Shown here piece after piece: positions 21,513 to 44,300 of a DNA stretch of 64,000 bases. The position numbers were made by a program, and so were the translations under genes. The notes under the pieces were generated by a model. It was not told where the DNA came from, did no database searches, and worked only from the letters and a program-made list of their open reading frames with translations. Numbering within the stretch: the stretch's first letter is position 1; every line of letters begins with the position of its first letter. Source of the stretch: Candidatus Latescibacterota bacterium (GTDB lineage: Bacteria > Latescibacterota > UBA2968 > UBA8231); contig CBDFJF010000001.1 of the NCBI GenBank assembly GCA_965248265.1, positions 160,001 through 224,000 of the forward strand. Reading direction: 5' to 3'.

Positions 21513-21670
21513 GGGTAGATATGTCACTACTCTCTCTTTCTTCTTTCTCTATCTCTCTCTGACATTTCTACCCCTCAAAAGGGATGTGAGGTGATTTGGA
21601 GAATAGAGTTGTCACCATGGTTATTCCTCTTTCTTTGTCTCATTCTCTCTAACATTTCTACCCTTCAAAT
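21513..21670. repeat. Block R1: four alternating GGGTAGA(A/G/T)wTGTyA iterons in a pyrimidine-rich tract (copy in element C)
   Basis: Close match to 38452-38609. Confidence 0.85.
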
Positions 21671-21711
21671 AGCGCACGAGGAGGAAGGCACGTTCGCCTA
21701 CTATCCCCGTA

Positions 21712-21824
21712 GTCGATCAAGTGTTCTCTGAGGCCATCAGACGGCCCAGAATCGTCGATCGGTACGTAGGTGGCGTACGGGTACCCGTGGACAGTATAGA
21801 GCGTCAGAACGGCCGTGAGAACGC
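21712..21824. repeat. Block R2 conserved non-coding sequence (copy in element C)
   Basis: GTCGATCAA.TGTTCT.TGAGGCCA...TCGTCGATCGGTA.GTAGGTGGCGTA...GGTACCCG...TATAGAGCGTCAGAACG matches 38652-38764. Confidence 0.85.
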
Positions 21825-21874
21825 AGTACACCGGGACGCAATCATCTCCGTCCTATACTCGATTTGCGATTCAG

Positions 21875-21973
21875 GCACATAGACACACCAAGACGGAGGT
21901 TTCAGGAAAGTCTGTATATAGAGCTGTATAGAGAAAGTTTGCCGAAACCTGTGTCGGGGTGTGTCGTGTCAGT
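21875..21973. repeat. Block R3 (diverged): GACAC/GTGTC inverted iterons around an AT-rich core
   Basis: GACACACC..AGGTTTC...TATATAGAG...GAAACCT GTGTCGGGGTGTGTC. Confidence 0.6.
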
Positions 21974-22113
21974 GGCTAAGCGCCGTGATGGTTCGTGAAA
22001 GTAAGGGCTGATCGTTCAGATTGCAGTCGAGGAAGCTGGCGCTGTTCAGTGCCTGAAACTTGCCGCCGCCATGCAGAAGACAATTTCGATTCTGAATCAG
22101 GCATATGTCGGCT

Positions 22114-22995
22114 CTAGGACGGATTGGTAGATAGATCCTTAGCAGAGTTCACCTCTCGACGAACTCGAACCGCAGAGCTACCATACTCACCTCCGTCCGG
22201 CAACATGCTGACGCGTAGAGGCAAGGCCACTTGCTCCCACTTTTCATTCTCCACTGCTGAGCCCATAGCGCCGCCCATACCGCCGCCAATAAGGGCACCG
22301 GGGAAACCTACAATTAATGCACCGACAAAAGTAGTTACAACAACGCCAACCGCATCCATGCCATGGTAAACGCCCAAGGAGTGGCCTAACCATGATCCCA
22401 CAGTTCCGCCAATGAGAAGACCAATGAGCGCTCCTTTGCTTGCCGCCGCGTCACGCGAGATCCCACCACGACTGACTTCCAAGTGAGCCAAAATGCTCAG
22501 AGGAATAGCTAAGGTAGTGCCTCGGCTTCTCAGTACGAGCGAGTCAGCTGATATCGACACAACTGTTCCTATAAGCCAATGTTCACCTATGTACATGAAA
22601 CCATCATGCCGAATACCGGGAGAACGCACTTTGATCCGCACCCGGTCCCTAGGCTTAATCGACGGGGCCTCTTGCACCGCAAGATCCGTCCACGAAAGCA
22701 GGACACCCGGCAGAGATACTTCCTTCCATCGTTCACCCAATATTCCACCTCCCTGGCTGACTTCGAATTTGGTTATGGAGTCGAGAGGGATTGCAAAAAA
22801 GGTCCGTTGATCTTCGGCGTTCAGCACGACGAGAGTGTCGGTGTCCAACGATACTACAGAGCCTATGAGTCGGTTGATGGTATAGGAGGGAGCCGAGACA
22901 CGTACCCGTGTCCCACGGTGGACGAGCAGCGTTTCTTGCGCCGCCAGGTCCGTCAGCGGTATCAGCAGGAGAGCAACGAAAAGCAGTCTCTTCAT
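22114..22995 (-). CDS. Secreted/membrane hypothetical protein with an internal tandem domain duplication and glycine-zipper TM
   Basis: Signal peptide MKRLLFVALLL; RVR..IG.VVS..D.LV...AIPL..EVS.GG occurs twice. Confidence 0.7.
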   Translation of the reverse strand: MKRLLFVALLLIPLTDLAAQETLLVHRGTRVRVSAPSYTINRLIGSVVSLDTDTLVVLNAEDQRTFFAIPLDSITKFEVSQGGGILGERWKEVSLPGVLLSWTDLAVQEAPSIKPRDRVRIKVRSPGIRHDGFMYIGEHWLIGTVVSISADSLVLRSRGTTLAIPLSILAHLEVSRGGISRDAAASKGALIGLLIGGTVGSWLGHSLGVYHGMDAVGVVVTTFVGALIVGFPGALIGGGMGGAMGSAVENEKWEQVALPLRVSMLPDGGEYGSSAVRVRREVNSAKDLSTNPS

Positions 22996-23036
22996 GTGGC
23001 TATTCCGGGCAACGAGGGTGGGATCATTGGTGTCAG

Positions 23037-23200
23037 TCATGCCTCCACCGCCACAACCACGCAGGTCATGTCGTCAGCCTGCTCCGCATCACCAGCAACA
23101 CCTTCACCTTATCAACCAGCCGATTGATGACAGCACTCGCCGGGAGTCCACTCTCACGCCGTTCTCAAAGTTTCCTTCGTGCGCTCCGAACCCGATCGCC
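23037..23200 (-). pseudogene. SpoIIE/PP2C phosphatase C-terminal remnant
   Basis: AVINRLVDKVKV/(shift)/AGDAEQADDMTCVVVAVEA*; the last 33 nt recur at 30931-30963. Confidence 0.6.
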
Positions 23201-23217
23201 AATCAGCACACCGCTCC

Positions 23218-26200
23218 TCATCTCGCCGCCAGCTTTAGTTGTGACTCCTCCAGCCTCTGAACGGCAGCGGTTAGCGCGTCCAACTGCGTTCGCAACTCAA
23301 TGTCCCTCTGCTCCAATTGTTCGTTGCGGGCGGTGAGTCGCGCTATATCCTGCTCCAGTGATACATTGCGCGCCATCAACTCCCTCGTCTGTGAGTCGAG
23401 TTCCTGCACGGCGGCAACCAACACCGGACGCACGCTATGTGTATCCACTTGCAGGTACCCGGTGCCGTCGTCCTGCACGCTTTCAGGAAATACCTCCTGA
23501 AATTCCTGGGCAATAAAGTTGTAATAGATGCGGTTGCCAACCGATGGATGCTCCCGCTGGTAATCCTCGTTATAGCGGAATCTGACCGGCCTCAACTGAC
23601 GAATCGTCTCCATGCCCTTCTCAACTTCCTCGATGTCCATCTTCAGACGCCGGTCGGAGTTGGCAAGCCAGTCACCGGCTGCGGTTTTGGAGGCATTACC
23701 CTCGACCTCGAACGGATTGGCCGTCGGTGCTCGGCCAACGCCGACCTCTCCACTGTTGGCAATTGTCATCCTGGTTGAGGGTGCGGTATTGACAGCGCCT
23801 GTCTGGAACGCAATCGTGCCGCCGAGAGCCAACGCAATGGCCGTCGTCCCGGCGCCTACATTGGAAATCACATCGGCACCAGCATCGTCCAATTCATAGT
23901 TGGTTGATAGGACCATCGCGTTCGTATACGGGCCATTCTGGTTTCGCCAGATGTAGCCAAAGAAGTTACCCAGGGCCATTCTGAATCCGTGTGTTGTATT
24001 CGTCGGTCCCGCTATGTAAACGTCCCCTTCGTCTATCTGAAGCTTGTAAGTCGGGCTTGTCGTGTTGATGCCGACATTGCCTCCGAGGAACAGTCCGGCG
24101 TAGCCGGTACCACCGTCCAGTACGCGGCCGTAAACTGCCACACCAGGTTTAGTGTAGCCTGCAACTCCAAACCAGTTGTCATCGAAGCCCCCGAGTGCAC
24201 CGTATGTGTAGGCGTTTGAACCCGCATCCGCTTCCGCGTTTGTCGTCAAGCCGGTCACTGATGCGTGTTGAAGTGTGTGTGGTGCGGTCGCCGCCAGACT
24301 ACTCCCAGAGTTGTCCAGGACACCGATCGCTGATCGAGTCTTCAGATTCGTGCCAGTAAAGGACCCGCCGATCACGTGTAACCTGCTCTCCGGCGCTGTC
24401 GTGCCGATGCCGACGTTGCCGTCACCTTGGATATGAACCGCGTCAACCGCCGTCCCTCCGGTCTTGGTCCTGAACCTGATGTCGCCGTCCGCGTTGTTGT
24501 AGAGGTTGTCGAAATACGTGTGCCCCGTGTTGTAGTCATGCCACATCTGCAAGCCTGTTGTCGCGCCGTCGTCTCTCGTCAGGAACAATCCCACGTCACC
24601 AGCACCAACCGACCGCATATCCAGCACCCTCGCATTGCCGGAATCAGAATTGAAAGCGGCCGGCAAATTGCCAGCCGGAACCGTCGTGTTGATGCCGACA
24701 TTGCCCGTAGCCGTAATGCGCATCTTCTCCACAGCCGTGGCGCTGTTCGACGTGAAGAATCGCATGGACGTGCCGCCAGCTGTTGAATTCGATGCAATAT
24801 CGAGTATCCCGGTACCTGTGTTGTAGTTGATGACGCCAATGTTTGACGTGGTGAGATCCGTAGCCGCGGAATTTGTGATACGCATCTGACCACTGTTGAT
24901 GTGCAACGCGTCTCCCGGGCTCGTTGTGCCGATGCCGACGTTGTTGTTGTCATCAATCGTCATGGCTGGTGAGGCCAGTGACGTGGTACCCGTAAGTCGC
25001 AGTTTTCCGTCCCCATCGTGGATGCCCAAACCTGCCCAGTTCGCGGTGCCGTCGTGGTCCGAATCGAACCACAGCTCGCTGTCATTCCCGGCACCCGCGC
25101 CATTGTTCGTCAGAAATACAGCATTCACACCGCTGGCCTTGTGCAGGTGGAGTAGTACATTCGGATTTAATGTCCCAATCCCCACATTGCCGTTTGTCAG
25201 CAAACCCATCCCGGCAGTGCCACCTGGCGAGATTTGCAGATGTTCGGTGGCAGATGTCGAAAGAATGCCAAACCCGCCCGCCGATTCGAGCCGTATGTGT
25301 TGTGCGGGAGTTCCCGTAAGTGATGAGCGTATCGCACCTTCAACTTCGAGCAAATCGTTGGGGCTGCTTGTACCGATGCCGACGTTGCCGTTCACGGTGA
25401 GTCCGCCAGCCCCAGCGATGTCTACCGCTCCATTGTCCGCCGTAATCGTACGCCCAGCGCCGGCACCACCCTCGTCGTAGGCCCCGTCGAGGGTGTTCTG
25501 GGTGTCGGTATCAGTATCCGTGTCCGTAGCGTTGAAGGTCAGGGTGTTGCCCGAAGGTGCGATGGCCATGTTGGTACCGGCAGCCAGGGTCACGGCATCC
25601 GTAAGGCTGTTCACCGTCTTGACCACGGCCCCTGCAGCCACATCACCGGCCACTATGGTAGCATCGGCAATCTCAGCCGAGGTGATCGCACTGGCGGCGA
25701 TCTTGGCGGTCGTGACAGCGCCCGCGGCCAGTTCCGTGGTGCCGACCCCGCCTGCAGCGATATCGAGGGTTACATCACCGGTAGTGCCGCCATTGGCAAG
25801 GCCCGTACCCGCCGTTACCCCGGTAATATCACCGCCAGCAGTGGCATCGATGGTAAGCGTGTTACCGGTCGGGGTGATGGCAATGTTAGATCCCGCCGCC
25901 AGAGTGACGGCGTCTTCCAGGCTGTTGACGCTGGTGACTACCTGACCGGCGGCGATGTCGGCAGCCACTATGGTTCCATCACCAATCTTCGCCGAAGTGA
26001 CGGCGTCAGCGGCCAGTTCCGCACTGTCCACAGCACCAGCCGCGATTTCATCAGCGTCCACTGAATCAGTCGCCAGGTCGGCTGCCGAAATGGTGCCATC
26101 GGCGATCTTGGCACTCGTTACGGCATCGGTACCCAGATCAGCCTCCGCGATCGCGCTGTCGATGATCTTCGCACTCGTGATCGAGTTATCCGCGATGTCG

Positions 26201-27174
26201 CCAGTACCCACTTCATTACCACCGGTGGTCGAAATCGTGATGTTCTGTCCGACTCGCTCAATGTCGATGTTGGCACCTTCGACCAGGGTTACATCATCAG
26301 TGGCCTGGTTCAGGCTTGACACAGCGGCCCCAGCGGCCACCTTGGAGGCCGTTACCGCAGCGTCCTGAATTTTGGCCGTCGTCACGGCATCAGCGGCAAT
26401 CTGCGTGGCCGTTACAGCATCGTCGGCCAGATCCACGGTTGCGATCGTGCCATCGGCCAGTTTGGCCGAAGTCACCGCGCCATCAGCCAATTCGCCTCCA
26501 GAGGCCGTGATCGTCACCGTATTACCGGTAGTGGCCACGGTGACATTGTTGCCGCCCGCAATGGTGACGCCGTTGGCAACGGTATTGACGCTCGTCACCA
26601 CCGCTCCAGAAGCGATGTCTGCGGAGCTTATGCTGCCATCGGCGATCTTGGCTGCGGTCACGGCATCGTCGGCCAGCTCTTCATCGGTGATCGCAGCATC
26701 TGCAATCTTGTCGCTGGTCACTGAGCCTTCCGCAAGCTGCTGCATACCCACGGCGCTCGCAGCGATCTTATCCGCAGTCACCGCACCGTCTTCAACATCC
26801 TTGGCGTAGAGGCTGTAGGGAGCCGCTACCAGCGCAATGCGGGGCGACAACTCATCGCCTGCGCCGATGGAAATGCCCAGGTAATAGGGCCGGTCAAAGG
26901 GCACTGCATCCAAGGACTCGCTCTCGCCCAGTACCACGCTGAAGAGCCCCTTGGCCGTCGTAACCGTCCGCGTCGACTCCCACGCCGCAGTACCCCCGGC
27001 AGCCTGCTCGTACAGGCGGAAGGTGATCTCATGGTCGCCATCTACGACCACATCGCCCGCGGCATCGCTCAGGTAGCCCATGTAGGAAATGGTCTTGGGC
27101 ACGGCCTCCTGGGCATGGACGGTCGATAGCGAAATTGCCAGGTAAAACGCGGTGGCAAGTAGGCGTTTCATCAC
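23218..27174 (-). CDS. Secreted trimeric fibre/adhesin with C-terminal peptidase S74 intramolecular chaperone
   Basis: Signal peptide, AVTxAKIAD repeats, GNVGIGT-delimited modules, SDRRLK...FIAQE S74 motif, coiled-coil tail. Confidence 0.88.
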   Translation of the reverse strand: MMKRLLATAFYLAISLSTVHAQEAVPKTISYMGYLSDAAGDVVVDGDHEITFRLYEQAAGGTAAWESTRTVTTAKGLFSVVLGESESLDAVPFDRPYYLGISIGAGDELSPRIALVAAPYSLYAKDVEDGAVTADKIAASAVGMQQLAEGSVTSDKIADAAITDEELADDAVTAAKIADGSISSADIASGAVVTSVNTVANGVTIAGGNNVTVATTGNTVTITASGGELADGAVTSAKLADGTIATVDLADDAVTATQIAADAVTTAKIQDAAVTASKVAAGAAVSSLNQATDDVTLVEGANIDIERVGQNITISTTGGNEVGTGDIADNSITSAKIIDSAIAEADLGTDAVTSAKIADGTISAADLATDSVDADEIAAGAVDSAELAADAVTSAKIGDGTIVAADIAAGQVVTSVNSLEDAVTLAAGSNIAITPTGNTLTIDATAGGDITGVTAGTGLANGGTTGDVTLDIAAGGVGTTELAAGAVTTAKIAASAITSAEIADATIVAGDVAAGAVVKTVNSLTDAVTLAAGTNMAIAPSGNTLTFNATDTDTDTDTQNTLDGAYDEGGAGAGRTITADNGAVDIAGAGGLTVNGNVGIGTSSPNDLLEVEGAIRSSLTGTPAQHIRLESAGGFGILSTSATEHLQISPGGTAGMGLLTNGNVGIGTLNPNVLLHLHKASGVNAVFLTNNGAGAGNDSELWFDSDHDGTANWAGLGIHDGDGKLRLTGTTSLASPAMTIDDNNNVGIGTTSPGDALHINSGQMRITNSAATDLTTSNIGVINYNTGTGILDIASNSTAGGTSMRFFTSNSATAVEKMRITATGNVGINTTVPAGNLPAAFNSDSGNARVLDMRSVGAGDVGLFLTRDDGATTGLQMWHDYNTGHTYFDNLYNNADGDIRFRTKTGGTAVDAVHIQGDGNVGIGTTAPESRLHVIGGSFTGTNLKTRSAIGVLDNSGSSLAATAPHTLQHASVTGLTTNAEADAGSNAYTYGALGGFDDNWFGVAGYTKPGVAVYGRVLDGGTGYAGLFLGGNVGINTTSPTYKLQIDEGDVYIAGPTNTTHGFRMALGNFFGYIWRNQNGPYTNAMVLSTNYELDDAGADVISNVGAGTTAIALALGGTIAFQTGAVNTAPSTRMTIANSGEVGVGRAPTANPFEVEGNASKTAAGDWLANSDRRLKMDIEEVEKGMETIRQLRPVRFRYNEDYQREHPSVGNRIYYNFIAQEFQEVFPESVQDDGTGYLQVDTHSVRPVLVAAVQELDSQTRELMARNVSLEQDIARLTARNEQLEQRDIELRTQLDALTAAVQRLEESQLKLAAR

Positions 27175-27259
27175 AACAGCTCCTGAGTGAGATTTCGTAT
27201 TGCGAGTATTACCAGCTTATGCCAGTGACCACACCACCAGGTTGTATAGTGGCGGGGTG

Positions 27260-27288
27260 ATGGTACGGAGATTCTCAGGGTGGACCAA
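27260..27288 (-). promoter_or_regulatory. Conserved inward sigma70-type promoter (element C)
   Basis: TTGGTC-17 nt-TACCAT. Confidence 0.6.
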
Positions 27289-27299
27289 GCGGGGGACAG

Positions 27300-27428
27300 C
27301 CCCTTACGCTCATACGCCATCCCCAGGGCCATCAGCGTCACAGCCGAGCGCTGCATCTCGCGTGCACCCTGCAGACAGGCAATGGCGAAGTCGATCTGAC
27401 CGTTCAAAGCCCGTGGAGACGAAATCAA
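27300..27428 (-). pseudogene. TPR-like fragment abutting the promoter block
   Basis: GQIDFAIACLQGA...AVTLMALGMAYERKG. Confidence 0.35.
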
Positions 27429-27631
27429 CCATCGACGTTGATTGGGCGAATATGTTCCTTAGAGGTCTGTCTGTCCGTTACGCTTGATGCAGCTGCAAGG
27501 ACTCCCTTGAGTAGGGGATAAGACGATGATTTGTGGAAAGTTACGATCACATCTTAAGACGTCGACCGCACGGAAATCTTTCCAACGCTTCGAAGTTTCA
27601 AATGATCGCTTGCCACGACGGAGCACCGTCG

Positions 27632-27811: not shown

Positions 27812-29443
27812 CTACTCCTTCGCACGAACCCGCAGCTGCGCTGCGTCAAGCACGACCTCAGACGAAGCGGACTCGCCGCGGTTCTGCACCGCCACGTCCA
27901 GCTGATTCTCACCGCGACGGATCTGTCTGGCATCGAGCTTGCCCTGCAGCCACTGACCTTCCTTGGGTTTTCGGTCCGGATCGGCCGGTTCCAGCCCCTC
28001 GACAGCGGCGCCGTTGAGTTTCACCGAGAAGTCGTCACCGGGAGCCCAATCCCACAGATGCAGGCTGAAATCGATGCTGCGCGCACCGGCAGATCCGACC
28101 TCCTCGCCCACCTGAAAACCCGCGGACACGGGGAGGGTAATCTCCGGGACTTCGGTGAAGCTATTGGGGCCTACAAAACACTCGATTCCGTAGAGCCTGT
28201 CTTTTCCCGCAATAGTTGCCGGTTCGCCGATCTCGCCCCACCATTCCGGCTCGCCGAACGCGGGATTGAAGAGGTAGAGCCCATCGGCGCCGGAATTGAA
28301 CAGATTCGAGGCGGCTCCCCGCCACGCGGCCATTGTGCCCTCCCAGCTGTTGAACACGAGAATAAACGACGGTCTGCCGACGCGCTCGGGCTGAGCTCCG
28401 CAGAGGGTCTCTACCCACGACCCGAACTGTCTGTATTTGCCATCGGTAAGTCCGAGAAAGGCCCAGCGACCCCAGAAGCCCCAGGACACGCAGGGATAGA
28501 CCGGAACCTCGTACTTGTGTCCCAGTGCGATCATATCGTTGTAGGAACTGCAAAACACCGATTCCAAGTTGCCGCCGGGCATGAGCAGATCGATCAATCC
28601 CTCCGCCAGCCACGTTTCCAGGTCGACCCCCACGTGTATCGAATCGGCAAGGCTGAACGGCGTATGCGCCGCCAGCAGCAGTGGGCGGCCGCGGCGGTTG
28701 GCCTGCTCGTCGGCCATGTCCCGGATGCGCCGCAAGAAATCGTTCATCAACTCCAGATGCTCCGGTTCGACGGGATTGCCCTCCAGTGACTCACGGAAGA
28801 AGGGCCAGTACTTGAAGAACTCCATGCCGATACAGTCCACGTCGTAGTTCTGCGCCACCTCCTGAATGATGCCGAAGATGTGCTCGCGCACCTCCGGAAT
28901 GGCGAAATCCATTTTCGTCCAGTAACAACGCGGGTGACCCCTCGGGTATTTCTCCCAATCGCCCTCCGTGCCCATCATGTATTGCGGATGGTCTCGCTTG
29001 AACTTGGCCAGACCGTAGGTCCATCGACGCGAACCCATGGGGAAGGAATCATGGGGATCGTTCATGCGCAGGCACCAAGCTGCTTCCAGGCCATGCTCGT
29101 GGCTGAAATCCAGCTGTACCTGCAAGCTGTCGCGCCCGTATTTCTCCACCAGCTCCAGCGGGATCCCCTTGCCGTAGAATCCGCCCAACTTCGTATGGTG
29201 TGAAAAGGTGAGGCCCGCCATGCAGCTGGCGAACCAGTTGCTGTCCACCTGGGTGCCGATCAGAGGCGTGCTGCGGGCATCGAGAAAATCTTGTACCAGA
29301 TCTCCGGTGGCGCGTACCGTCTGGGCTCCGGCGACGTCATACTCATGTTCCACTCCGGAGCGTGCTTCGATTACATCGTCGCCGTCGTTGTTGTAAATGA
29401 TCCGGCGTTGCCGCCAGCGCGCCTTCATCCGGTCTGCATTCAC
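27812..29443 (-). CDS. Family 10 glycoside hydrolase-like protein, paralogue of 13577-15211
   Basis: Shared blocks RRIIYNNDG, TFSHHTKLGGFYG, NSWEGTMAAWR. Confidence 0.78.
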   Translation of the reverse strand: MNADRMKARWRQRRIIYNNDGDDVIEARSGVEHEYDVAGAQTVRATGDLVQDFLDARSTPLIGTQVDSNWFASCMAGLTFSHHTKLGGFYGKGIPLELVEKYGRDSLQVQLDFSHEHGLEAAWCLRMNDPHDSFPMGSRRWTYGLAKFKRDHPQYMMGTEGDWEKYPRGHPRCYWTKMDFAIPEVREHIFGIIQEVAQNYDVDCIGMEFFKYWPFFRESLEGNPVEPEHLELMNDFLRRIRDMADEQANRRGRPLLLAAHTPFSLADSIHVGVDLETWLAEGLIDLLMPGGNLESVFCSSYNDMIALGHKYEVPVYPCVSWGFWGRWAFLGLTDGKYRQFGSWVETLCGAQPERVGRPSFILVFNSWEGTMAAWRGAASNLFNSGADGLYLFNPAFGEPEWWGEIGEPATIAGKDRLYGIECFVGPNSFTEVPEITLPVSAGFQVGEEVGSAGARSIDFSLHLWDWAPGDDFSVKLNGAAVEGLEPADPDRKPKEGQWLQGKLDARQIRRGENQLDVAVQNRGESASSEVVLDAAQLRVRAKE

Positions 29444-29635: not shown

Positions 29636-29892
29636 TCAGAAAAGCTGATACGCTCCCCAGCCGCCGTCCACCCACAGCACTTCCCCCACGATGTAGGAAG
29701 CTTCGTCGCTGGCCAGATAGAGCACGGCTTCGGCAATCTCCTGCGGCGTGCCCAACCGCCGCATGGGGGTACGACGCTCGTACATCTCCTGCGAGGCGGT
29801 GCCTTCGGCCAGGCCTTTCTCGACCATCTCGGTCAACACCACGCCCGGCGCCAGCCCCACTACCCGCACACCGCGATCGGCCCACTCGATGC
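29636..29892 (-). pseudogene. SDR oxidoreductase C-terminal fragment
   Basis: EWADRGVRVVGLAPG...TPMRRLGTPQEIAEAVLYLASDEASYIVGEVLWVDGG. Confidence 0.8.
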
Positions 29893-29894
29893 AC

Positions 29895-30587
29895 CCGACT
29901 ACCGATGCTCAGTGGGATGAGGGAACGGTCGAGAAGCTGCAGAAGTGGGCAGCCGACAAGGAGGCAGTGCGTGCCGTACTTCTCACCGGCAACAGGGCAG
30001 GACCGCCAGGATCATACGATGCGTTGTCGGATTTCGATGTCGTTCTGGTCGTTCGAGATGTCCATCCTTTCCATGTGGACCGAATCTGGATAGGCGACTT
30101 TGGCGTCGTTCTGGTGACCTACTGGGACGCACTCTATGCGGACCAGGAGACTGGACTTGAGATCTTTGCCAACGTCGTGCAGTACGAAAGTGGATTGCGG
30201 ATCGACTTCACGCTTTGGCCTGTCGAAAAGGCGCGCCGGGTTGGCCAGACCTCGGAGCTCCCTGCTGGCCTTGACGTTGGTTATTCGGTGCTCGTTGACA
30301 AGGACAATCTTACGACGGGCTTCAGGGCCCCAAGCTTCATGGCGTTTGCCTCAGCAAAACCGAGCGCAGTGGAGTTTTCGCGGTTCGTTGAAGAGTTCTA
30401 TAGCGATGCGCCGGCTGTCGCCAAGTTTCTGATGCGCGGCGACTTGATGCCGGCCAAGTGGGTCCTTGACCAAGACATGAAGCAGGTCTATCTGAGGCGG
30501 CTTCTGCAATGGCAGATTGCCCTGGACACTGACTGGAACGCGCAGTTCCGATCGCTTGGGAATGATCTACAGCGACGGGTATGTTGA
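29895..30587 (+). pseudogene. Aminoglycoside 6-adenylyltransferase (ANT(6)/AadK-like) family protein, truncated
   Basis: VRAVLLTGNRA..DALSDFDV, RIDFTLWP, GYSVLVDKD, KPS..EF..EF; no start codon and no final helices. Confidence 0.7.
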
Positions 30588-30819
30588 CACGAATGGCCCC
30601 GAAGTACGCACCTCTTGCCGCCCCACCGATTCCGAGTCGTCCCTTGTAAGTGGCGGCATCCGTCTCAGAAACGATTTCCGCAGCGACTCCTAGTCCCAGC
30701 AGATCCTCGAGCAGTCGCTCACCTATCCTGTCCTTTATGGCTTCCATCTAATCCGATCTATGGACTATCTATAATGTGCCTTATCTTTCCCACCCTATCA
30801 CCCTGTCTAGACCTCGATA

Positions 30820-30930
30820 CTGACACACTGACAGAGTCCGACACAGTATCGGGAAAGGTTTTCATAGAGGGGTGAGATCCAGTATGGAGAGACTACCCGG
30901 AAGCTGGGTCTGGGTACGTCAGTGTGTCAG
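30820..30930. repeat. Block R3: long imperfect palindrome of CTGACACA/CCGACACA iterons (element B)
   Basis: CTGACACACTGACAGAGTCCGACACAG ... GGGTACGTCAGTGTGTCAG; arms match 39149-39258. Confidence 0.85.
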
Positions 30931-30976
30931 TCATGCCTCCACGGCCACAACCACGCAGGTCATCTCCGGCAATGCA

Positions 30977-34818: not shown

Positions 34819-35232
34819 TCAATATCCCCCAGTACTCGTTCCCGAAGTCCGGGTCGTGGCGACTGGTCGGCGCGTAATTGACAACGTCCCTTCCATGCCC
34901 TGTGCCCGATGGCCGGGAACGGCGCAGTAGAAGATATAGGTCCCTTCCGAGACGCCGCTCAATTGCGCGCTGGTCGTGTCACCTGCTGGTATATCCACAT
35001 TGACGTTGAGAGCATCGATAGTGAGCGTATGGCCCATATCCGCGCTACTCAATCGTATGGTGACCTCGTCTCCCGGATCAAAGGCAATCCCTCCCGGATT
35101 GAACTGGAACGTACTGGCGGTCATCTCAATGACGCCGTTCGATGGACGGGTTGGCCCGCCGCTATCATCTTCACAGGATGTGAGAAGGCAAGAGGTGAGG
35201 GCGGCGATGAAAACACCTGCGATAGTTTTCAT
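34819..35232 (-). CDS. Cupredoxin-domain lipoprotein
   Basis: Lipobox-like LLTSC; type 1 copper ligands H...FYCAVPGHRAQGM. Confidence 0.85.
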   Translation of the reverse strand: MKTIAGVFIAALTSCLLTSCEDDSGGPTRPSNGVIEMTASTFQFNPGGIAFDPGDEVTIRLSSADMGHTLTIDALNVNVDIPAGDTTSAQLSGVSEGTYIFYCAVPGHRAQGMEGTLSITRRPVATTRTSGTSTGGY

Positions 35233-35404
35233 AATTCCGGATTCTTCACTTTTGTCAAATAGCCACAATCAGAAGGAACCGTGTCACGATCATTCCTCCT
35301 GTGCAGTGATGCTAAGTGGGGGCAGGCGAGAGTTTGATGTGGCGAGGGATGGGCGTCAAGCGTATGTCCGGATAACGAAGGAAGTGCAGAATGGTTGTCC
35401 GAAT

Positions 35405-36298
35405 CTACGGCCTGCTACCGTACTTTAACTCACCCCAACCCCTTGGTGTGACAGCCGTTGGCGCGTCACCCATACGCAACACACGAACACCAACGAAACC
35501 ACTTTCGCCGCGTGGGGAGCCGCCAGCCCGAAACGCCGAGCGAGTGCTTCGGCCTGCATTGCGGAAGTATCCGCCCCGAAAGACACGGACATTGGAGTCT
35601 GTTTTTGGCGTTAACGGGTCAATCTGGGGGTCATTCGTGTACATTCCAAACCCGTCCTGTACCCACTCGAACACATTCCCGTGCATATCATAAAGACCCC
35701 ATGGATTCGGTAACTTCGAACCCACCGGCTGGCCATACTGCAAACCTATGTCCCAAGCGTTCTTTCCATACCATGCGTAGTCTTCTAACTGGCTCTCATC
35801 ATCGCCGAAGGACCACAGGGTGGTAGTTCCGGCTCGACACGCATATTCCCATTCTGCCTCTGTCGGCAATCGATACAGTTCCTCGCCCTCCATTTCGTTC
35901 AAACGGCTGAAGAGTATCAAGGCAACGTTATACGAAATGTAAACCGCAGGGTGGTCCGGGTTGGACTGCACGAAGTCCTGGCCTGACCACGGAGTCCTAC
36001 CCATCACCGCCTCCCACTGTCCCTGGGTGATCTCAAACTTCCCCAGATAAAAACCCTGACTGATCGTCACGCTGTGTGCGGGTTGATCCTCTTGGAACTC
36101 GCCGTCCAACACTTCATCTCCCAGTGGGCCAGAGCGGTAAGCTTGCGCCTGTTCTTCAGTCGTTCCCATGACGAATGTGCCTGGCTCAATCCACACCATC
36201 TCCATCGTCGCGCCGCCAGGTAAGTCCACGGTGATCTCCGTGTTTGCGCTTACGCTCGTCACCGAAAGCATGAGAATGCATGTTAGCTTTTTCATCAT
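35405..36298 (-). CDS. Secreted FGE-sulfatase (SUMF1-like) domain protein with a WGxLK tail
   Basis: YRLPTEAEWEYACRAG, PNPWGLYDMHGNVFEW, RVFRGG; ends PTAVTPRGWGELK. Confidence 0.9.
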   Translation of the reverse strand: MMKKLTCILMLSVTSVSANTEITVDLPGGATMEMVWIEPGTFVMGTTEEQAQAYRSGPLGDEVLDGEFQEDQPAHSVTISQGFYLGKFEITQGQWEAVMGRTPWSGQDFVQSNPDHPAVYISYNVALILFSRLNEMEGEELYRLPTEAEWEYACRAGTTTLWSFGDDESQLEDYAWYGKNAWDIGLQYGQPVGSKLPNPWGLYDMHGNVFEWVQDGFGMYTNDPQIDPLTPKTDSNVRVFRGGYFRNAGRSTRSAFRAGGSPRGESGFVGVRVLRMGDAPTAVTPRGWGELKYGSRP

Positions 36299-36446
36299 GG
36301 TCCCTTCACCTTCGCATGATCCAACGCCCACTCCAGTACGCCATCGTCGGAACACGGCTCGACGTACTGCTGCAACCTGCCCAGCAGATCTGTCATCGTG
36401 ACTGATTGAATCCAAGGTTACCATCCAGCGCCACCCTTATGTCGTG

Positions 36447-36826: not shown

Positions 36827-38281
36827 CTATCTCAGCAGCAGGAGCTTCCGCGTTTCCACTCGCTCGCCAGCTTGTAATCGATACAGATACACGCCACTGG
36901 CTAGCTCACGCTCGTTATCATCTCGACCGTTCCATCGAAGGGTATACGTCCCCGCACTTCGATAACCGCGCAGCAGACTCGCCACCTTCTGTCCTGCGAG
37001 GTTGTATAAGGATAGATCAACCTCGTCGGCGGTAGGCAGGGCGAAGCGAATGACGGTGTTGCTATTGAAGGGATTGGGGTAGTTCTGCCGTAGCGCAATC
37101 TGGTGCGGCAGTGTCGGCGCTGGTTCTTCTTCCACGGCAGTCGGCAACGGGAGTGCTGGGTCATGCGCCGCGAGCATGGCTTCGCGGTATTCGACCGGGA
37201 GAAGCGGCCATTCGTCGGGACCGGGTCGCCTCCAGAGATTCACGTTCTGACTGTAGACCCAGACATATTCGTCGGTGTGCTCGAGGGCGCCTCGCAACGC
37301 CGTGGTCAACTCGGTAGGTGAGTAGTAGTTGCTGTTGAAATTCTCGGTGGAGAAGCCGCTGGAGCTGCTGCCGATGAATATGGGGAACGCGATCCGGGCG
37401 TGGCGGTCGAACTTCTCCGGCACCCTGCTGTGAGCTCGGACTTCGGTCTTGAATTCCATCGCCACCTCCTCGAACTGGGCGGCCGTCTTGAACTTGTAGG
37501 CTTTCTCCGCGCCATCGATGATCATGGCCTCGCCAGAGCATTCCGACAGCAGCCCGTCGAAGAACGGGCGCGTGAGATCGAAGTGGTCGCGCGACGCCCC
37601 AAAGTTCGAGTGCACCGGCCCGAGAAGGGTGATTATCCTGATGTCCGGGTAGACGGAGCTGACGGCCCGCATGATCTCGGCACCGCGCTCGAATACCTTG
37701 TCGTAGTATGCCTCGATCGTCCTGGGAGCGAGGTGGTTAACGCGTTGGGAGTCCCACAGGTTCGTGGCATTGTAGGCCTCGTTGTCGAACAAGAAACCCA
37801 CCATGCCGGCGCGTTTGCAGTACTCGGCGGCCACCTTCCAGTTGCTCACGACGGCGTCGAACTCAGAATCGAACCAGTTCGGCACCTTCAAGCCCGCTAT
37901 GCCGGGGTCGAGGTAGACGAGAAGGAAATTCTCCATATACAAATTCGTATCAGCCGACCGCATGAGCTCAATGCCGGTATCGAGATCCACGAGGCGGTGG
38001 AAATCTTTCCGGAACAAACGGCCAACTGCCTCGGTGCGGAGGCCGTCCTTTTCGGTAATCGGGTAGATCGTAACGCCGTCGACGACTGGCATGACTCTTT
38101 CCATCTCACGCACATCGTCGAAGAACATGCGGGCAGTGGGTCTGCCGCTGAAGGAGATGACTTTCTTGCCGGTGTGAGCGGGCTGACTCCATCCCGGAAT
38201 CGCGAACACCAGGATCAGGCCCAGGACCAGCAGCGAGCTGACGCAGCACAAGGTGCAATACCATTGGATGAATCGGTTCAT
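36827..38281 (-). CDS. Secreted TIM-barrel glycoside hydrolase-like protein with T9SS/FlgD-like C-terminal domain
   Basis: GFLFDNEAY; LRQNYPNPFNS...WNGRDDNERELASGVYLYRLQAG. Confidence 0.75.
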   Translation of the reverse strand: MNRFIQWYCTLCCVSSLLVLGLILVFAIPGWSQPAHTGKKVISFSGRPTARMFFDDVREMERVMPVVDGVTIYPITEKDGLRTEAVGRLFRKDFHRLVDLDTGIELMRSADTNLYMENFLLVYLDPGIAGLKVPNWFDSEFDAVVSNWKVAAEYCKRAGMVGFLFDNEAYNATNLWDSQRVNHLAPRTIEAYYDKVFERGAEIMRAVSSVYPDIRIITLLGPVHSNFGASRDHFDLTRPFFDGLLSECSGEAMIIDGAEKAYKFKTAAQFEEVAMEFKTEVRAHSRVPEKFDRHARIAFPIFIGSSSSGFSTENFNSNYYSPTELTTALRGALEHTDEYVWVYSQNVNLWRRPGPDEWPLLPVEYREAMLAAHDPALPLPTAVEEEPAPTLPHQIALRQNYPNPFNSNTVIRFALPTADEVDLSLYNLAGQKVASLLRGYRSAGTYTLRWNGRDDNERELASGVYLYRLQAGERVETRKLLLLR

Positions 38282-38451
38282 ATGATGGTCCCCTTTGGTG
38301 GCTGTAGGATACACTTTTGCAAGAGACGTGCCAAGAAGGGCGACAGGAGAGTCAGGCGGTGCTAACTCATTGTTGCTGTGGGGATTGAGGTTAGCAGACT
38401 GTTTCCCGGACACATCGAGGCCGTGAGTCCGGTTTTCTGGACGGATTTCGT

Positions 38452-38609
38452 GGGTAGAATAGTTACGGGCTTCTCCTTCTCTACTCTCTCCCTCTCTCTG
38501 ACTTTTCTACCCCTCAAAAGGGATGTGAGGTGATTTCATGGGTAGAGTTGTTACCGTTGGTATGTCTCTTTCTTTCTCTCATTCTCTCTAACATTTCTAC
38601 CCTTCAAAT
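38452..38609. repeat. Block R1 iteron array (element A)
   Basis: GGGTAGAATAGTTAC / TGACTTTTCTACCC / GGGTAGAGTTGTTAC / TAACATTTCTACCC. Confidence 0.85.
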
Positions 38610-38651
38610 CGAATGGCATGCGACTGAAGGTGCTCCCCCATCAGTGTCGAT

Positions 38652-38764
38652 GTCGATCAAATGTTCTGTGAGGCCACGAAGTTGCCCACATTCGTCGATC
38701 GGTATGTAGGTGGCGTAACAGGTACCCGCAGACATTATAGAGCGTCAGAACGCCTGTAGAACGC
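38652..38764. repeat. Block R2 (element A)
   Basis: Matches 21712-21824. Confidence 0.85.
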
Positions 38765-39087: not shown

Positions 39088-39148
39088 GTGATCAATCTCC
39101 TCTGACGTTGCTACCAATCATCGTAAGTTGCTTTTCATATGCGTGGGA

Positions 39149-39258
39149 CTGACACACTGACACAGTCCGACACAGAATTGGGGTAGGTTGCTATAGTGGG
39201 GATTTGCTGTATTGCAGAGCTTACCCTACAACCGTGTCGGGGTACGTCAGTGTGTCAG
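39149..39258. repeat. Block R3 palindromic iteron array (element A)
   Basis: CTGACACACTGACACAGTCCGACACAG ... CCGTGTCGGGGTACGTCAGTGTGTCAG. Confidence 0.85.
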
Positions 39259-39353
39259 TTGAAGCAGCATTCACGCGTTTACCCGCACTGCCAAACCGGT
39301 AACGTCGTCGCCCTGCGGAGCCGATCCCAGAGAAGGTCGAAACATGACTCGCT

Positions 39354-42300
39354 TCATCGCGCCGCCAGCTTTAGTTGTGACTCCTCCAGCCTCCGAACGA
39401 CAGCGGTCAGTGCGTCCAACTGCAGTCGCAACTCATCGTTACTCCGAGCCAACGTTTCCTTTTCGGATCGCAGTTCCGACAACTCAGCCTCCACCTGAGT
39501 CAATTCGGCACTACCAGACGCGGCCTTCTCGTGCTGTTGCTCGATGATCCCTTGCTGTTCCTGAATAGCCTTGACGAGAACAGGGACGAAATCGGAATAG
39601 TAAAGGCCCAGGGTCTGGTCAGGATCGTCGCCGATGTGGACGACCTCGTCGATTACAGTCCGCACCTCCTGGGCGATCAAACCAAGCTTCCTGCCCCGTT
39701 CAGGCCGGTCCTTCCAGGTATAGGAGACAGGGTGCAGACGCATCACTTCGTTGAGCCCATATGGACTGTCCTGGATACTCTCCTTCATCCGGCGATCTGA
39801 CGTGTTCACCGAACCACTAACGGCGAATACGTCCGTCCATCGATTACCCGATGCACCGCAAGAAATTGTGTTGTCAGTGAGCGGCCTGATGTTACCACCG
39901 AAATCGACAATACCAGCACCGAACTGGATGTTATTTCCAGCCGGTTGGATCCAAAGCTTTTTGCTATTCAGCGACTGTATGTAACCACCATTTGCATCAA
40001 CGCCAACGGCTACCTGACTGAGTGCTCCGCCACTCTGTCCGTTAGTCGCCATTATGTGCTGCCCGCTGCCGCCCGGTGTGGCATCTACCTTGGATACCAA
40101 CAGCGGGTGAGATCCGGAAGGACTCGTCGTGCCGATGCTGACGTTGCCACCTGTGGGTTGCAACACTATCTCAGTGCCGCTCTGTGATAGGAGTTCCAAA
40201 TCTCCTGTTGTCCCATCACGTGTTATAGAACCGGATGTTGCGGACGCGAAGAGAAGGGACAGATCCACACCGGCAGACTTCAGCAAAACATTACCAGTCA
40301 CTTCAAGCTTTTCTCCTGGTGCTGTGTTGCCGATGCCGACATCGTTGGCTGACGTGATGCGCATCGCCTCACTGCCACCCGTGTGGAATAGGATGGGAAG
40401 GCTGTTGGATTGAAGATAAAGGGCGGATTCGTCAACAGGTGAATAGAGCCATCCCTGCAGGTTCGCATCCTTCATGACCCGAAAACCACTATTGAGACTA
40501 CCCGCGGATTGAGCCGTGACATCGATATAGGTCGTGGCCGCACCTCCATCCACAACCAGTTCCTCTGCCGGACTCGTCGTGCCGATGCCGACGTTGCCGG
40601 CTGCGCTCACGGTCATCCTCGTCGTCGAGCCCGTCTGAAATTGAATGTCACGGGAGCCCGAGTTGTGTCCGATCTGTAGTCCAGTGGCATCAATGTGATC
40701 GACCGTGCTGGCGAAGCTTGCACCTTCGAGCTTCAGCCCAACGGATCCAGAAAGCACATCTCGGGCGTGTACCCGAGTAGTCGGTGCTGTTGTGCCCACG
40801 CCCACGTTGCCAGCATCGTCCACGACAAGCCGATATGTGGCGACACTCGTCTCGGCCTTATCCCGTACCTGGAAGAGCCACCAGGCGTTCTGCAATGCGG
40901 GGATGGCCGAATAGGCATCGGACCAGACTCCACTTTGCCACTTTATGTTTCCGCTCGTTCTGTCGAAATACTCGATCGTCCCATAATTATTAGTACCGTC
41001 ATCATACCGCATTCGCATCGTGAAGAATGGTCCCAGGTCAACGTCTATTGGAGTAATAGGGCTTGTTGTTCCGATTCCGAGCCCCCCATCCTTCCAGTAC
41101 ATATAGGCTTCCGACAGATCACCTTTCCAAAGTGCCAGGTCGTCTATGTTGTTGCTCTGCTGAAACCGGACTTTGCCCGTTCCCCTTGTGAACGTGAGCT
41201 GATCGCCTCCTGTTCCTTCGGCCACGTGGAGTTTTGCCAACGGCGAAGTAGTGCCTATACCCACGTTGCCATTCACCGTCAGTCCCCCAACTCCTGCGAC
41301 ATCGACAGCACCGTTGTCCGCTGTGATGGTGCGGCCAGCTCCCGCTCCACCTTCGTCGTAGGCTTCGTCAAGTGTATTCTGCGTGTCGGTGTCGGTATTG
41401 GTGTCGGTGGCGTTGAAGGTGAGGGTGTTGCCGGAAGGAGCGATGGCCATGTTAGTACCAGCGGCCAGAGTGACTGCGTCAGTAAGGCTGTTCACCGTCA
41501 GAACCACCGCACCTGCGGCAACATCGCCTGCCACTATGGTCGCATTGGCAATCTCAGCCGAGGTGACCGCACCAGGGGCAATCTTGGCAGTTGTGACAGC
41601 GGCGGCGGCCAGTTCCGTGGTCCCAACTCCACCTGCGGCGATATCGAGGGTTACATCGCCCGTGGTGCCGCCATTGGCAAGGCCCGTACCCGCCGTTACG
41701 CCAGTGATGTCACCCCCGGCGGTGGCGGCAATAGTCAGGGTGTTACCGGCCGGGGTGATGTTGATGTTAGATCCCGCGGCCAGAGTGACGGCATCGGTCA
41801 GGGTGTTGAGAGTGGTGACCACTGCGCCACCTGCTATATCGCCAGCGCCGATGGTCGCATCGAGGATCTTCGCACTCGTCACCGCGTCATTGGCCAGATC
41901 GGCTGTAGCAATGGTGGCGTCCAGGATTTCATCGGTGGCCACAGCGCCTGTGGCAATGTCAGTGGCGACAATGGTTGCGTCGGCGATCTTTGCACTCGTT
42001 ACCGCATCGGGGGCCAGATCAGCCTCCGCAACTGCACCGTCGATGATCTTGGCACCTGTGATCGAGTTGTCTGCTATGTCGCCAGTGCCCACCTCATTTC
42101 CACCGGTGGTCGAGATCGTGATGTTCTGGCCGACTTGAACGATGTCGATGTTGGCACCCTCAAGCAGGGTTACGTCGTTGGTGGCCGAGTTGAGACTCAA
42201 TACCGCCGTGTCCGTGGCCAACTTGGCTGCCGTCACCGAGGCGTCCTGGATCTTGGCAGTCGTTACTGCATCGGCCGCGATCTCTGCCTCGCTCACGGCA

Positions 42301-43144
42301 TCGGCGGCTATCTGCGTCGCCGTTACCGCATCGTCTGCCAGATCAACGGTTGCAATCGTGCCGTCTGCCAGTTTGGCCGAAGTCACCGCGCCATCGGCCA
42401 GGTCAGCAGTACCAATGGCACCGTCGGTGATCTTGGCGGAGGTCACCGCATTGTCAGCCAATTCAGATCCGGCTGTAGTGATCGTAACCGTATTACCGGC
42501 AGTGGCCACCGTGACGTTATCACCACCTGCGATCGTGACCCCGTCGGTGACGTTGTTTACGCTCGTCACTACCGCTCCCGAAGCGATGTCGGCTGAGCCT
42601 TGCTGCCATCGGCGATCTTGGCTGCAGTCACGGCATCATCGGCCAGCGCTTCACCAGTGATCGCTGCATCGGCAATCTTGGCGCTGGTTACTGAGTCTTC
42701 CGCAAGCTGCTCCGTACCCACGGCGTTGGCAGCGATCTTATCCGCAGTCACCGCGCCGTCTTCGACATCCTTGGCATAGAGGCTGTAGGGAGCCGCTACC
42801 AGTGCAATGCGCGGCGACAACTCATCGCCTGCGCCAATCGAGATCCCCAGGAAATAGGCTCGGTCGAAGGGCACCTCATCCAGAGACGCACTCTCGCCCA
42901 GTACCACATCGAAAAGCCCCTTGCTCGTCGTTACCGTCCGCGTCGCCGTCCACACGGCAGCACCCCCTGCGGTCTGCTCGTACAGGCGGAAGGTGATCTC
43001 ATGGTCACCATCTGTGACGACATCGCCCGCGGCATCGCTCAGGTAGCCCATGTAGGAAATGGTCTTGGGCACGGCCTCCTGGGCGTGGGCGGTCGATAGG
43101 GAAATTGCAAGGCAAAGTGAGATGGCAAGCAGGGATTTCATCAC
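39354..43144 (-). CDS. Secreted S74-chaperone fibre/adhesin, paralogue of 23218-27174, with a one-base frameshift at about 42600 (pseudogene or sequence error)
   Basis: ORFs 42569-43144 and 39354-42569 join when one base is restored (the paralogue reads DGSISSADI); SDRRMK...GLIAQEV. Confidence 0.85.
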
Positions 43145-43211
43145 AACATCTCCTCAGTGAGATTCTTATTCGAGCATCTGGTGCAGACACTACACCATAG
43201 TGGCGGGAGTG

Positions 43212-43240
43212 ATGGTACGGAGATCCGGAGGGGGAACCAA
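43212..43240 (-). promoter_or_regulatory. Conserved inward sigma70-type promoter (element A)
   Basis: TTGGTT-17 nt-TACCAT. Confidence 0.6.
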
Positions 43241-43298
43241 GCGATGGCAGGATAGCCTGCATTCCATCATAACCGCTGCTACAGCATCGCCATCACGA

Positions 43299-43432
43299 GG
43301 GCTCTGAGGCTATCTGGCGGGCAGATGTGCAGATACTTGGATTAGGGCAGGTGTGCAGATGGGTGCGGATGCATATCAGGGTCCCCACTTTCACGGATTA
43401 CAGAAAAGGGGTGCCGGGCCTGGGGGGCGAGG
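43299..43432. repeat. Blocks Q + P of the element end (element A)
   Basis: Matches 34200-34306, with extra GTGCAGAT/GTGCGGAT units. Confidence 0.85.
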
Positions 43433-43501
43433 TAGGGTAGGGGGAGTCGGGTCAGTCCGAATCGACGTCTTCGTGCTCCCTCGGTGCAGAATTTCGGAGT
43501 G

Positions 43502-43560
43502 ATGTGGTACAAATGTGGTACGCCGAAGGACTTTAGAACCGTAACCTGTTGTTATTATTT
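43502..43560. other. Arm-type-like direct repeat and IHF-like site next to att
   Basis: ATGTGGTAC x2 at an 11-bp period; minus strand TAACAACAGGTTA is close to WATCARNNNNTTR. Confidence 0.5.
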
Positions 43561-44300
43561 AGGATATCCCAACTCACCGCACTCGGACACCAGAACTTCT
43601 CGATGTACCCAATAACAAGCTGAGTCCCCTCCTCATGTCCAACGTAAGGCGGGGTCGCCGGATTGTACATCGCATCGGTGAGATCCCGGATCAGGGTCAC
43701 ATCCAATCCCCACTTGACCATCTGCTTGATGCCGAAAGTCCGGTTGATCACACACATGTTCGTGTGCACTCCCATGATCAGTAGATGGTGCACGCCGCGT
43801 GACGCCAGAAAGCTGTAGATCTCACCACCGTCATCGGCGATGCCGTCACGCACTTCGTCGATGTCGATACCAGGATGCTGGCTTGACCAGGCTTTGAACG
43901 ACTGCACTTCACCGGTGTCGGAACCACCATTGGGCGCACCGAAGGGGAGATCCGGGTCCTCACGCTCGGTTTCCGCCGGCGGCTCCACCGGCTCACATTC
44001 TTGAATCCTGAGACGCGCCGCGTTGTCGGCGTAGAATTCGAGCGTATCGGAGGGTGCATGCACGATGGTAACACCGCGATCTCGGAGCGCATGCGAGACT
44101 TCGTTCATGCGCGGAACCATCTCATCCACGCGCTCGGTTGCCCCCTTGGTCCAGTGCTTGTCCCACACGTCGCACAACAAGAGGGCGGTTTGCTCACATG
44201 GCAGTCCGGCTTGCTGCTCCAGCACTTCCCAGTACGCACGATCGGCCGCATCGCGCTTCATCTGTTGCCAGCGCCGATTGATCTTGATGACTCCGGCCAT
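43533..44300 (-). CDS. Isochorismatase/nicotinamidase-like cysteine hydrolase (integration target)
   Basis: TALLLCDVWDKHW, IVHAPS, GVHTNMCV, RDLTDAMYNP. Confidence 0.88.
   Translation of the reverse strand: MAGVIKINRRWQQMKRDAADRAYWEVLEQQAGLPCEQTALLLCDVWDKHWTKGATERVDEMVPRMNEVSHALRDRGVTIVHAPSDTLEFYADNAARLRIQECEPVEPPAETEREDPDLPFGAPNGGSDTGEVQSFKAWSSQHPGIDIDEVRDGIADDGGEIYSFLASRGVHHLLIMGVHTNMCVINRTFGIKQMVKWGLDVTLIRDLTDAMYNPATPPYVGHEEGTQLVIGYIEKFWCPSAVSWDILNNNNRLRF
43572..43604. repeat. att-like 33-bp direct repeat within the isochorismatase 3' end
   Basis: Identical to 34440-34472; encodes IEKFWCPSAVS. Confidence 0.95.

Follow-up and report, generated by a model that had tools for sequence, protein, structure and literature searches.

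The window analysed here is a 64,000-nt stretch from an uncultured member of the Latescibacterota (positions 160001-224000 of contig C1 in G000, a 7.32-Mb genome with 59.6% G+C that is assembled into two contigs, C1 and C2). Between 21507 and 44300 it holds three neighbouring units, A, B and C, in which different genes are set into one repeated series of non-coding blocks. A first-pass annotation had described these units as a tandem stack of elements lacking integrase and replicase, with an ordered non-coding scaffold and exchangeable cargo. We compared them with the rest of the genome, and with 41 relatives and 76 family genomes, none of which belongs to the same genus. Read along the minus strand, with attachment sites written att, open reading frames ORF and the target gene ICL (isochorismatase-like), the features are as follows.

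43533-44300, minus strand: ICL target gene (PF00857); its last 23 codons extend into unit A
43566-43604, minus strand: att_A, in the ICL 3' end, encoding IEKFWCPSAVS; 37/39 identical to 34434-34472, with 33 nt exact
43299-43433, minus strand: blocks P and Q of unit A (BLASTN); P also occurs in two relatives, G007 and G066
43214-43252, minus strand: core ("promoter") block of A, then a fibre-type leader (sequence comparison)
39354-43144, minus strand: fibre gene A, broken in two by the loss of 1 nt near 42600; signal peptide and Peptidase_S74 chaperone domain
39148-39259, minus strand: R3_A, 112-nt hairpin with a 14-nt closing inverted repeat (folding energy -50.3 kcal/mol, z -7.2)
38444-38764, minus strand: R2_A, which contains TATAAT, and two tandem R1 hairpins with GA-rich loops
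38282-38390, minus strand: sigma-54-type promoter block (TGGCACGTCTCTTGCA) ahead of the T9SS-tail gene; five genome loci
36827-38281, minus strand: T9SS-tail protein, cargo of A (this and the next three by Pfam scan and reading of the N-terminus)
35405-36300, minus strand: FGE-sulfatase, cargo of A
34819-35268, minus strand: cupredoxin, cargo of A
34442-34822, minus strand: 126-aa membrane ORF, cargo of A
34410-34472, minus strand: att_B, a displaced 21-codon ICL 3' fragment (IEKFWCPSAVSEDLIPENTGS, then stop) at the A/B junction
34135-34307, minus strand: P, Q and core of unit B, with a B-type leader after the core
30977-34110, minus strand: cargo of B, a secreted CBM9/DUF2092/AhpC-TSA thioredoxin-fold protein and a 186-aa membrane ORF
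30819-30966, minus strand: 43-nt block and R3_B hairpin, right end of unit B
30578-30805, minus strand: host flank beyond A+B, with a homologous segment in the metagenome contig L069 (81% over 212 nt)
27302-27450, minus strand: truncated TPR-gene fragment adjoining the core of unit C
21507-27300, minus strand: unit C, comprising core, intact fibre gene (23218-27174), 43-nt block, 308-aa secreted ORF, R2 and two R1

Self-BLASTN of the window together with a repeat search recovered every block, in one common minus-strand order. Besides the att block, P and Q at 34200-34307 match 43299-43433 (87% and 77% identity), the 39-nt core recurs at 27262-27300, 34135-34173 and 43214-43252, R3 at 30819-30931 matches 39148-39259 (77%), and R2 with two tandem R1 copies at 21533-21824 matches 38472-38764 (79%). 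The fibre genes are alike in their 5' parts (25370-27291 and 41251-43243, 77%) and at their 3' ends (23218-23299 and 39354-39435, 91%). The block order described earlier holds, with amendments: unit B ends on the right at about 30806, just past R3, not at 30590, and what had been called arm-like repeats amounts to a single 9-nt duplicate, seen by eye in the alignment. In unit C the R3 hairpin is absent and only a 43-nt flank is present (23030-23072, 95% like 30924-30966 in B).

Judged from N-termini, the cargo is for the most part secreted or membrane protein, as the first-pass annotation had it. The two large ORFs encode paralogous fibre proteins with a signal peptide and a C-terminal Peptidase_S74 chaperone domain; the remainder comprises the CBM9/DUF2092/AhpC-TSA protein, the cupredoxin, the FGE-sulfatase-family protein, the protein with a T9SS sorting tail and small membrane ORFs. 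The absence of enzymes for integration or transfer was likewise borne out: a Pfam scan of 25 ORFs, 18 in units A, B and C and seven flanking them, matched no integrase, relaxase, primase or terminase family, and six-frame searches with PF00589 (19 genome matches, 15 of them above the family cut-off) and PF04986 (IS91 transposase, 16 genome matches) gave no match in the window. The sole mobility genes that Pfam scans gave for A, B, C and a related unit, D, are IS3- and IS481-family transposase genes, both of them in D.

Unit A, 9.1 kb long (about 43565 to 34473), lies between the intact ICL 3' end and the displaced 21-codon ICL copy, with unit B directly after it. The IEKFWCPSAVS of att_A continues as WDILNNNNRLRF to the stop codon, and both tails past the att block, compared with six family genomes, resemble real ICL C-termini. 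The att block with its 37/39 identities stands between flanks at the level of shuffled sequence (39 nt each side; 27/48 columns alike, where shuffling gives 22 on average and 28 at most; Fisher p = 5e-5). ICL is single copy in the genome, and its synteny with GFO and PhyH genes is retained in G007; the right end of B yielded no third ICL fragment. When metagenome contigs were searched with a degenerate form of the ICL end, one record was returned, the 1233-nt contig L069, in which the ICL end (86% over 239 nt) is followed by 364 nt and then by a homologue of 30578-30805 (81%), with homology resuming about 14 nt past R3_B. The flanks of A+B are neighbours in L069 and 12.8 kb apart in G000, and L069 may represent the empty site for A+B.

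The first-pass annotation had predicted the same block order at other loci with different cargo, and this is what we found in unit D (C1:2.29 Mb), a 10.2-kb unit whose cargo is partly different and which runs P, core, fibre, R3, R2-like block, two small ORFs, R1 and sigma-54 block, the fibre gene being split by the IS481-family transposase gene. Unit D is bracketed by a complete tRNA-Arg(ACG) (C1:2287873-2287949) and a 3' fragment of it (2298083-2298131) that is identical at 49/49 positions and ends 67 nt before tRNA-Arg(TCG); in G006 the two tRNA-Arg genes are just 51 nt apart, an empty site. The IS3-family transposase gene adjoins the tRNA in D, and an integrase is absent there. Synonymous divergence (dS) of the fibre 5' part among A, C and D is 0.35-0.42, an age at which a free 49-nt copy would be expected to carry about nine changes; D has none (P(0) = 1e-4), which puts the integration at a much later date than the parting of the units, although gene conversion with the intact tRNA could also have kept the fragment perfect. 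The units diverged well before reaching their present sites, which argues for independent arrival or movement and not for duplication in place.

We compared 500 nt upstream with 30 kb downstream at ten core sites and found flanking repeats at four of them, with 14-nt matches only at two more. Besides A and D, the four include s467 (C1:467 kb), where a 97-nt repeat (87.6%) contains a 48-nt tRNA-Phe fragment (45/48) and, with the intact tRNA-Phe, brackets 1.8 kb holding core, B-type leader, a SpoIIE gene and an R2-like block. At s2005 (C2:2.005 Mb) the end of an NHL-repeat gene (FYNNQVKAVRIS, then stop) lies 16-25 nt before the core and is repeated at +3.7 kb (27/30) and +4.8 kb (28/29), outside any NHL gene. 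Recombinase genes are absent from all four units and the core lies 16-330 nt inside one end in each; no conserved sequence was found at their non-promoter ends. The four have four targets (ICL, tRNA-Arg, tRNA-Phe and the NHL gene), and the idea of one att site as a family feature falls with them. A tRNA lies within 10 kb of 4/12 core sites, which is not significant alone (p = 0.10). The genome also has other tRNA 3' fragments (Val, SeC, Leu, Thr; 48-68 nt) at a great distance from the corresponding genes, and PF00589 matches lie near some of these fragments.

Two loci place the blocks next to integrase sequence. At s1922 (C1:1.92 Mb) a tRNA-Met is followed by a PF00589 integrase remnant (25 bits, below the cut-off) and then the core, and the search of related genomes for the blocks found P directly behind an intact tyrosine integrase of another genus (G007), which lies next to tRNA-Val and is followed within 3 nt by P and core-like sequence. 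In G066, P comes after a PhyH-like gene with no integrase in view, and a search of 40 relatives turned up no integrase-bearing relative at ICL. A second, tandem cluster of fibre genes on C2 has its own shared flanking non-coding blocks, and between two of its fibre genes lies a perfect 26-nt copy of the tmRNA 3' end (C2:220765-220790), 49 kb from ssrA, which suggests a further island boundary.

The blocks themselves look like expression signals and hairpins. The core, cTTGGTCC-N6-CTCCGAATCTCCGTACC, precedes unrelated genes at some ten loci of the genome, and its 17-mer has 12 genome matches at up to two mismatches against none for a control. It is followed by the fibre-type leader in A, C, D and a 228-nt stump at C1:794 kb, and by the B-type leader before four genes, encoding the thioredoxin-fold protein of B, a SpoIIE phosphatase, a histidine kinase and one other. 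B-type core and leader together are 84-90% alike over 63-119 nt at these four loci; against the promoter of B (prom_B), identity is 89% over 63 nt at C1:467 kb, 85% over 71 nt at C1:1.92 Mb and 85% over 119 nt at C2:2.005 Mb. A hairpin in the B-type leader is marked by one clearly compensatory pair only among six sequences. The promoter module seems to have been taken from a secreted-protein gene, because the kinase locus (C2:2005107-2005225) and the phosphatase locus (C1:467082-467159) keep, behind the B-type leader, a short dead ORF resembling the signal peptide of the thioredoxin-fold gene. Seen by eye, block Q is also like the core, as is P in its 3' half.

Outside this genome, a different genus (G021) has two full core copies, one with the B-type leader, which precede a Na/sulfate symporter operon and a zinc dehydrogenase gene; no tRNA-Leu fragment lies within 5.5 kb upstream of the G021 core copy. 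The strict core pattern was found in none of 60 family genomes. In 75 family genomes the 17-mer, at up to two mismatches, gave 39 matches against 25 for the control; among the 14/39 inspected, two are full copies, both in G021, and the other 12 look like chance. None of the five exact 17-mer matches in viral contigs has the full motif. We infer from this distribution that the core, together with the 5' leader, may be a lineage-level promoter.

R3 folds into a hairpin of 112-117 nt with a 14-nt closing inverted repeat (-44 to -50 kcal/mol, z -5.3 to -7.2), present in three copies in the genome, all in the same context. We considered a miniature inverted-repeat transposable element (MITE), which the 14-nt inverted repeat recalls, yet there are just three copies and a target-site duplication was not seen; an attC-like reading was also rejected, as the ends of R3 gave no match by eye to the attC consensus. 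R1 is a hairpin with a GA-rich loop, with z of -3.6 and -4.7 in two of the three folded copies and the third degenerate, and P has no significant structure (z +0.4 and +0.8). No Rfam family matched 21000-44600 at E up to 1, save a chance snoRNA match. The 38282-38390 block, which we take to be a sigma-54 promoter from its likeness to the sigma-54 consensus, recurs at its five loci with different genes downstream. Ends of ISCR/IS91 elements, stumps of which are known from other places in this genome, were tried as a source of the blocks and rejected: similarity between the window and the 12 IS91 loci with flanks is limited to 14661-15418 and 17712-17751, neither of them within the units. Pattern searches for fibre relatives gave 589 matches in genome contigs and eight in viral contigs, none confirmed in either, and 20 metagenome-contig matches to the T9SS-tail protein gave none confirmed.

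Units of this family are both decaying and mosaic. The first-pass annotation had taken conservation of the non-coding blocks as an argument against simple decay; decay is evident, because fibre A carries a 1-nt frameshift, fibre D is split by the IS481-family gene and the 794-kb copy is a 228-nt stump. Contigs from two other studies match the T9SS-tail gene and the 126-aa ORF at 93-97%, and these matches end at the same points, 38386 and 34529, with a further end at 36827 in one case; past these points the contigs continue with 187-3262 unlike letters, so modules of a promoter plus a gene have other neighbours in near relatives. The T9SS-tail gene with its sigma-54-type block (36827-38386) has different neighbours on both sides in two other metagenomes.

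We suggest, with a probability of roughly 60%, that remnants of integrative genomic islands, all of one family, have piled up in this stretch. Each unit would have been integrated into a gene 3' end by a tyrosine recombinase and would then have lost its integrase; what was left, delimited by att sites alone, would by definition be a cis-mobilizable element (CIME). At the ICL site, tandem accretion would have joined A and B, and unit C would be a further copy that has lost its ends. The ordered scaffold may be the surviving family backbone, made up of an inward-reading promoter with its 5' leader near one end (P, Q, core), hairpins after cargo genes (R3, R1) and internal promoters (R2, the sigma-54 block). 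Differences in cargo would have arisen through module swapping by recombination at the shared blocks, plus deletions and insertion-sequence insertions. The earlier picture of integrated, integrase-less units is upheld for A and its relatives by the ICL anatomy, L069 and unit D, and does not extend to B, with its one-sided repeat, or to C, which has none.

Several observations weigh against this reading. Flanking repeats longer than 14 nt were not found at B, C, s539, s1018, s794 or s1922; B has the ICL fragment on one side only and no right-hand repeat, and the core of C abuts the truncated TPR-gene fragment. The s467 repeat extends 49 nt past the tRNA, which is unusual for an att core, and P lies beside the tRNA fragment in D and on the intact-tRNA side in G007. 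L069 is only 1233 nt long and 81-86% alike, a deletion in its own lineage would look identical, and its 364-nt spacer and last 414 nt have no homologue in G000. No att-to-att (excision) joint is listed in the contigs from the source sample, which drop rare forms, and the G021 core has no flanking repeat within 5.5 kb. The four att sites all lack a known cognate integrase, and four different targets would need four integrase specificities. Finally, block identities of 77-89% correspond to Jukes-Cantor distances of 0.12-0.28, and because these are not far from the fibre dS, the blocks alone are compatible with an old duplication.

CIMEs have lost the genes for integration and transfer, keep attL and attR and stack in tandem at the 3' end of a target gene, next to related elements (PMC5704250); they and their tandem accretion were reportedly first described for ICESt1-related elements of Streptococcus thermophilus. 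CIMEs in tandem accretion are the closest known kind, and the concept is already published (PMC5704250). The likeness lies in the att repeats from the target 3' end in A, D, s467 and s2005, not in B and C, and in the lack of integration and transfer genes inside A, B, C and D. The differences are that no integrative and conjugative element (ICE), integrative and mobilizable element (IME) or conjugation gene is seen here as a partner, that the host is an uncultured Latescibacterota with family members at four targets, that B and C are without one or both att sites, and that mobilization in cis is putative here.

The anatomy at ICL recalls the cryptic prophage e14 in icd of E. coli K-12, where intact icd enters the element and a C-terminal fragment, icdC, lies at the other end (PMC13626634). 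Unit A likewise has intact ICL at one end and a C-terminal fragment at the other. It differs in having no recombinase beside att, whereas e14 keeps its own integrase and excises after SOS induction, and in an ICL fragment of only 21 codons. D and s467 resemble islands integrated in tRNA genes by crossover in the anticodon loop, each being bracketed by a complete tRNA and a 48-49-nt 3' fragment from the anticodon stem, a length typical of this class; the integrase next to the tRNA is absent in both.

Putative mobile promoters (PMPs) were reportedly described by Matus-Garcia, Nijveen and van Passel in 2012. They are highly similar upstream sequences before unrelated genes (commentary, PMC3575422), for which the threshold is an identity of 80% or more across 50 nt or more ahead of non-homologous genes. 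prom_B has this degree of similarity at three other loci (85-89% over 63-119 nt). It differs from a plain PMP in that 4/10 core copies lie inside repeat-flanked islands, which suggests a route by which the promoter spreads, and in that the similarity runs in two cases into a signal-peptide coding remnant. Phage satellites (P4-like elements and phage-inducible chromosomal islands) and IMEs share with our units a small integrated form that relies on enzymes encoded elsewhere. Such elements retain an integrase of their own and, in most cases, genes for replication, packaging or a relaxase; no such family occurs in any unit here, and neither fibre nor core motif has relatives in viral contigs.

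It is unlikely that the units go back to an old segmental duplication that took in the fibre locus and its regulatory flanks and was later altered by indels, by gene conversion and by ectopic recombination of dispersed promoter copies, with no site-specific integration. On this account the short gene-end repeats would be by-products of illegitimate joints. The fibre family has at least nine copies, the tandem cluster on C2 also shares its flanking non-coding blocks, the block identities lie near the fibre dS, unit C abuts a truncated TPR gene, and intergenic repeats with copies elsewhere are common in the genome (11/12 gaps within the stretch of the three units, 13/21 outside), all of which such a duplication would accommodate. 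It leaves unexplained the perfect 49-nt tRNA fragment bracketing D together with the G006 empty site, the 48-nt tRNA-Phe fragment, the 95% att block amid shuffle-level flanks, and repeats far younger than the divergence of the units. A duplication with a regulon promoter was in fact our initial reading, dropped on the tRNA-Arg and tRNA-Phe fragments and L069.

Improbable, too, is the proposal of the first-pass annotation that the units are living gene shuttles acting only in cis, whose blocks are att, arm, ori, pac or oriT sites served in trans by enzymes encoded elsewhere. The four units with the core near one end and no recombinase would suit it, as would the perfect repeat of D, homology that breaks off exactly where blocks end (38386 and 34529) in contigs from two further studies, and the supply of 15 PF00589 matches above the cut-off. 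The att sites, however, differ between units, the core looks like a promoter and leader before unrelated genes, also where there are no repeats (G021), P lacks significant structure, no block matches an Rfam family and the full core motif is missing from the viral contigs; a function as ori, pac or oriT is shown for no block. Fibre A is frameshifted and fibre D disrupted by an insertion sequence, and with no excision joint listed among the contigs, present mobility or mobilization in trans finds no support.

Quite unlikely, in our view, is that the conserved end (P, Q, core and leader) serves as a shared cis module of a living, non-autonomous integrative family moved by unrelated tyrosine recombinases. 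Recombinases of resident islands would then insert the units into diverse 3' ends of tRNA and protein genes, and modules made up of a promoter plus a gene for a surface fibre or another secreted protein would be exchanged at block edges. An assembly artefact, a false join of paralogous fibre loci caused by the repeats, is hardly credible: short-read contigs from the source sample do break at the repeated blocks and one low-depth contig joins 25855 to 41740 between fibre paralogues, but the source-sample contigs cover the stretch piecewise (16 listed X1/X4 pieces without differences, except one with five), the genome is assembled into two contigs, and the units, 77-95% alike, are distinguishable.

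Around the units the window has features of other kinds. The interval between B and C holds a GHL10-like gene without a signal peptide and, on the plus strand, an ANT(6)-like gene (29748-30587), so named for its match (E 9e-42) to PF04439, the family of streptomycin (ANT(6)) adenylyltransferases. GHL10-like paralogues at 13598-14816 and 28198-29422 are inverted relative to each other and 67% identical, with about six further copies in the genome. The stretch at 15311-15418 (also 14661-15215) is like the flanks of IS91-family (Y2 transposase) loci and is probably another ISCR-like end stump beside a GHL10-like gene. Adjoining the end of unit C, a 563-nt stretch with a PEMT-like gene (20608-21168) is 95.7% identical to C1:919876-920438, a recent duplicate. 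Beyond ICL, a 165-nt intergenic repeat (44302-44467) has 19 BLAST matches elsewhere in the genome; it behaves like an inserted MITE, because a contig from another study, about 95% alike, skips exactly those 166 nt. Three intergenic gaps at 16052-17812 each have 14-16 copies elsewhere in the genome. IS3-family ORFs with an ALIL frameshift pseudoknot (RF01497, 101 bits) lie at 8080-9371, and a thiamine pyrophosphate (TPP) riboswitch (RF00059, 62 bits) lies at 63021-63120 on the minus strand.

The units are not a new class of element; they are a known kind of mobile-DNA debris, in a phylum for whose mobile DNA almost nothing is known. They provide the Latescibacterota with a documented set: three units with clear att-type repeats (A, D and s467), the shorter NHL-end repeats of s2005, and empty sites in relatives for A+B and D, although that for A+B stays a probable one. 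Large surface fibres and further secreted proteins are the cargo of these units, which also illustrate how one promoter with its leader can reach unrelated genes by riding islands, a concrete route for mobile promoters, for which the case has so far been only statistical.

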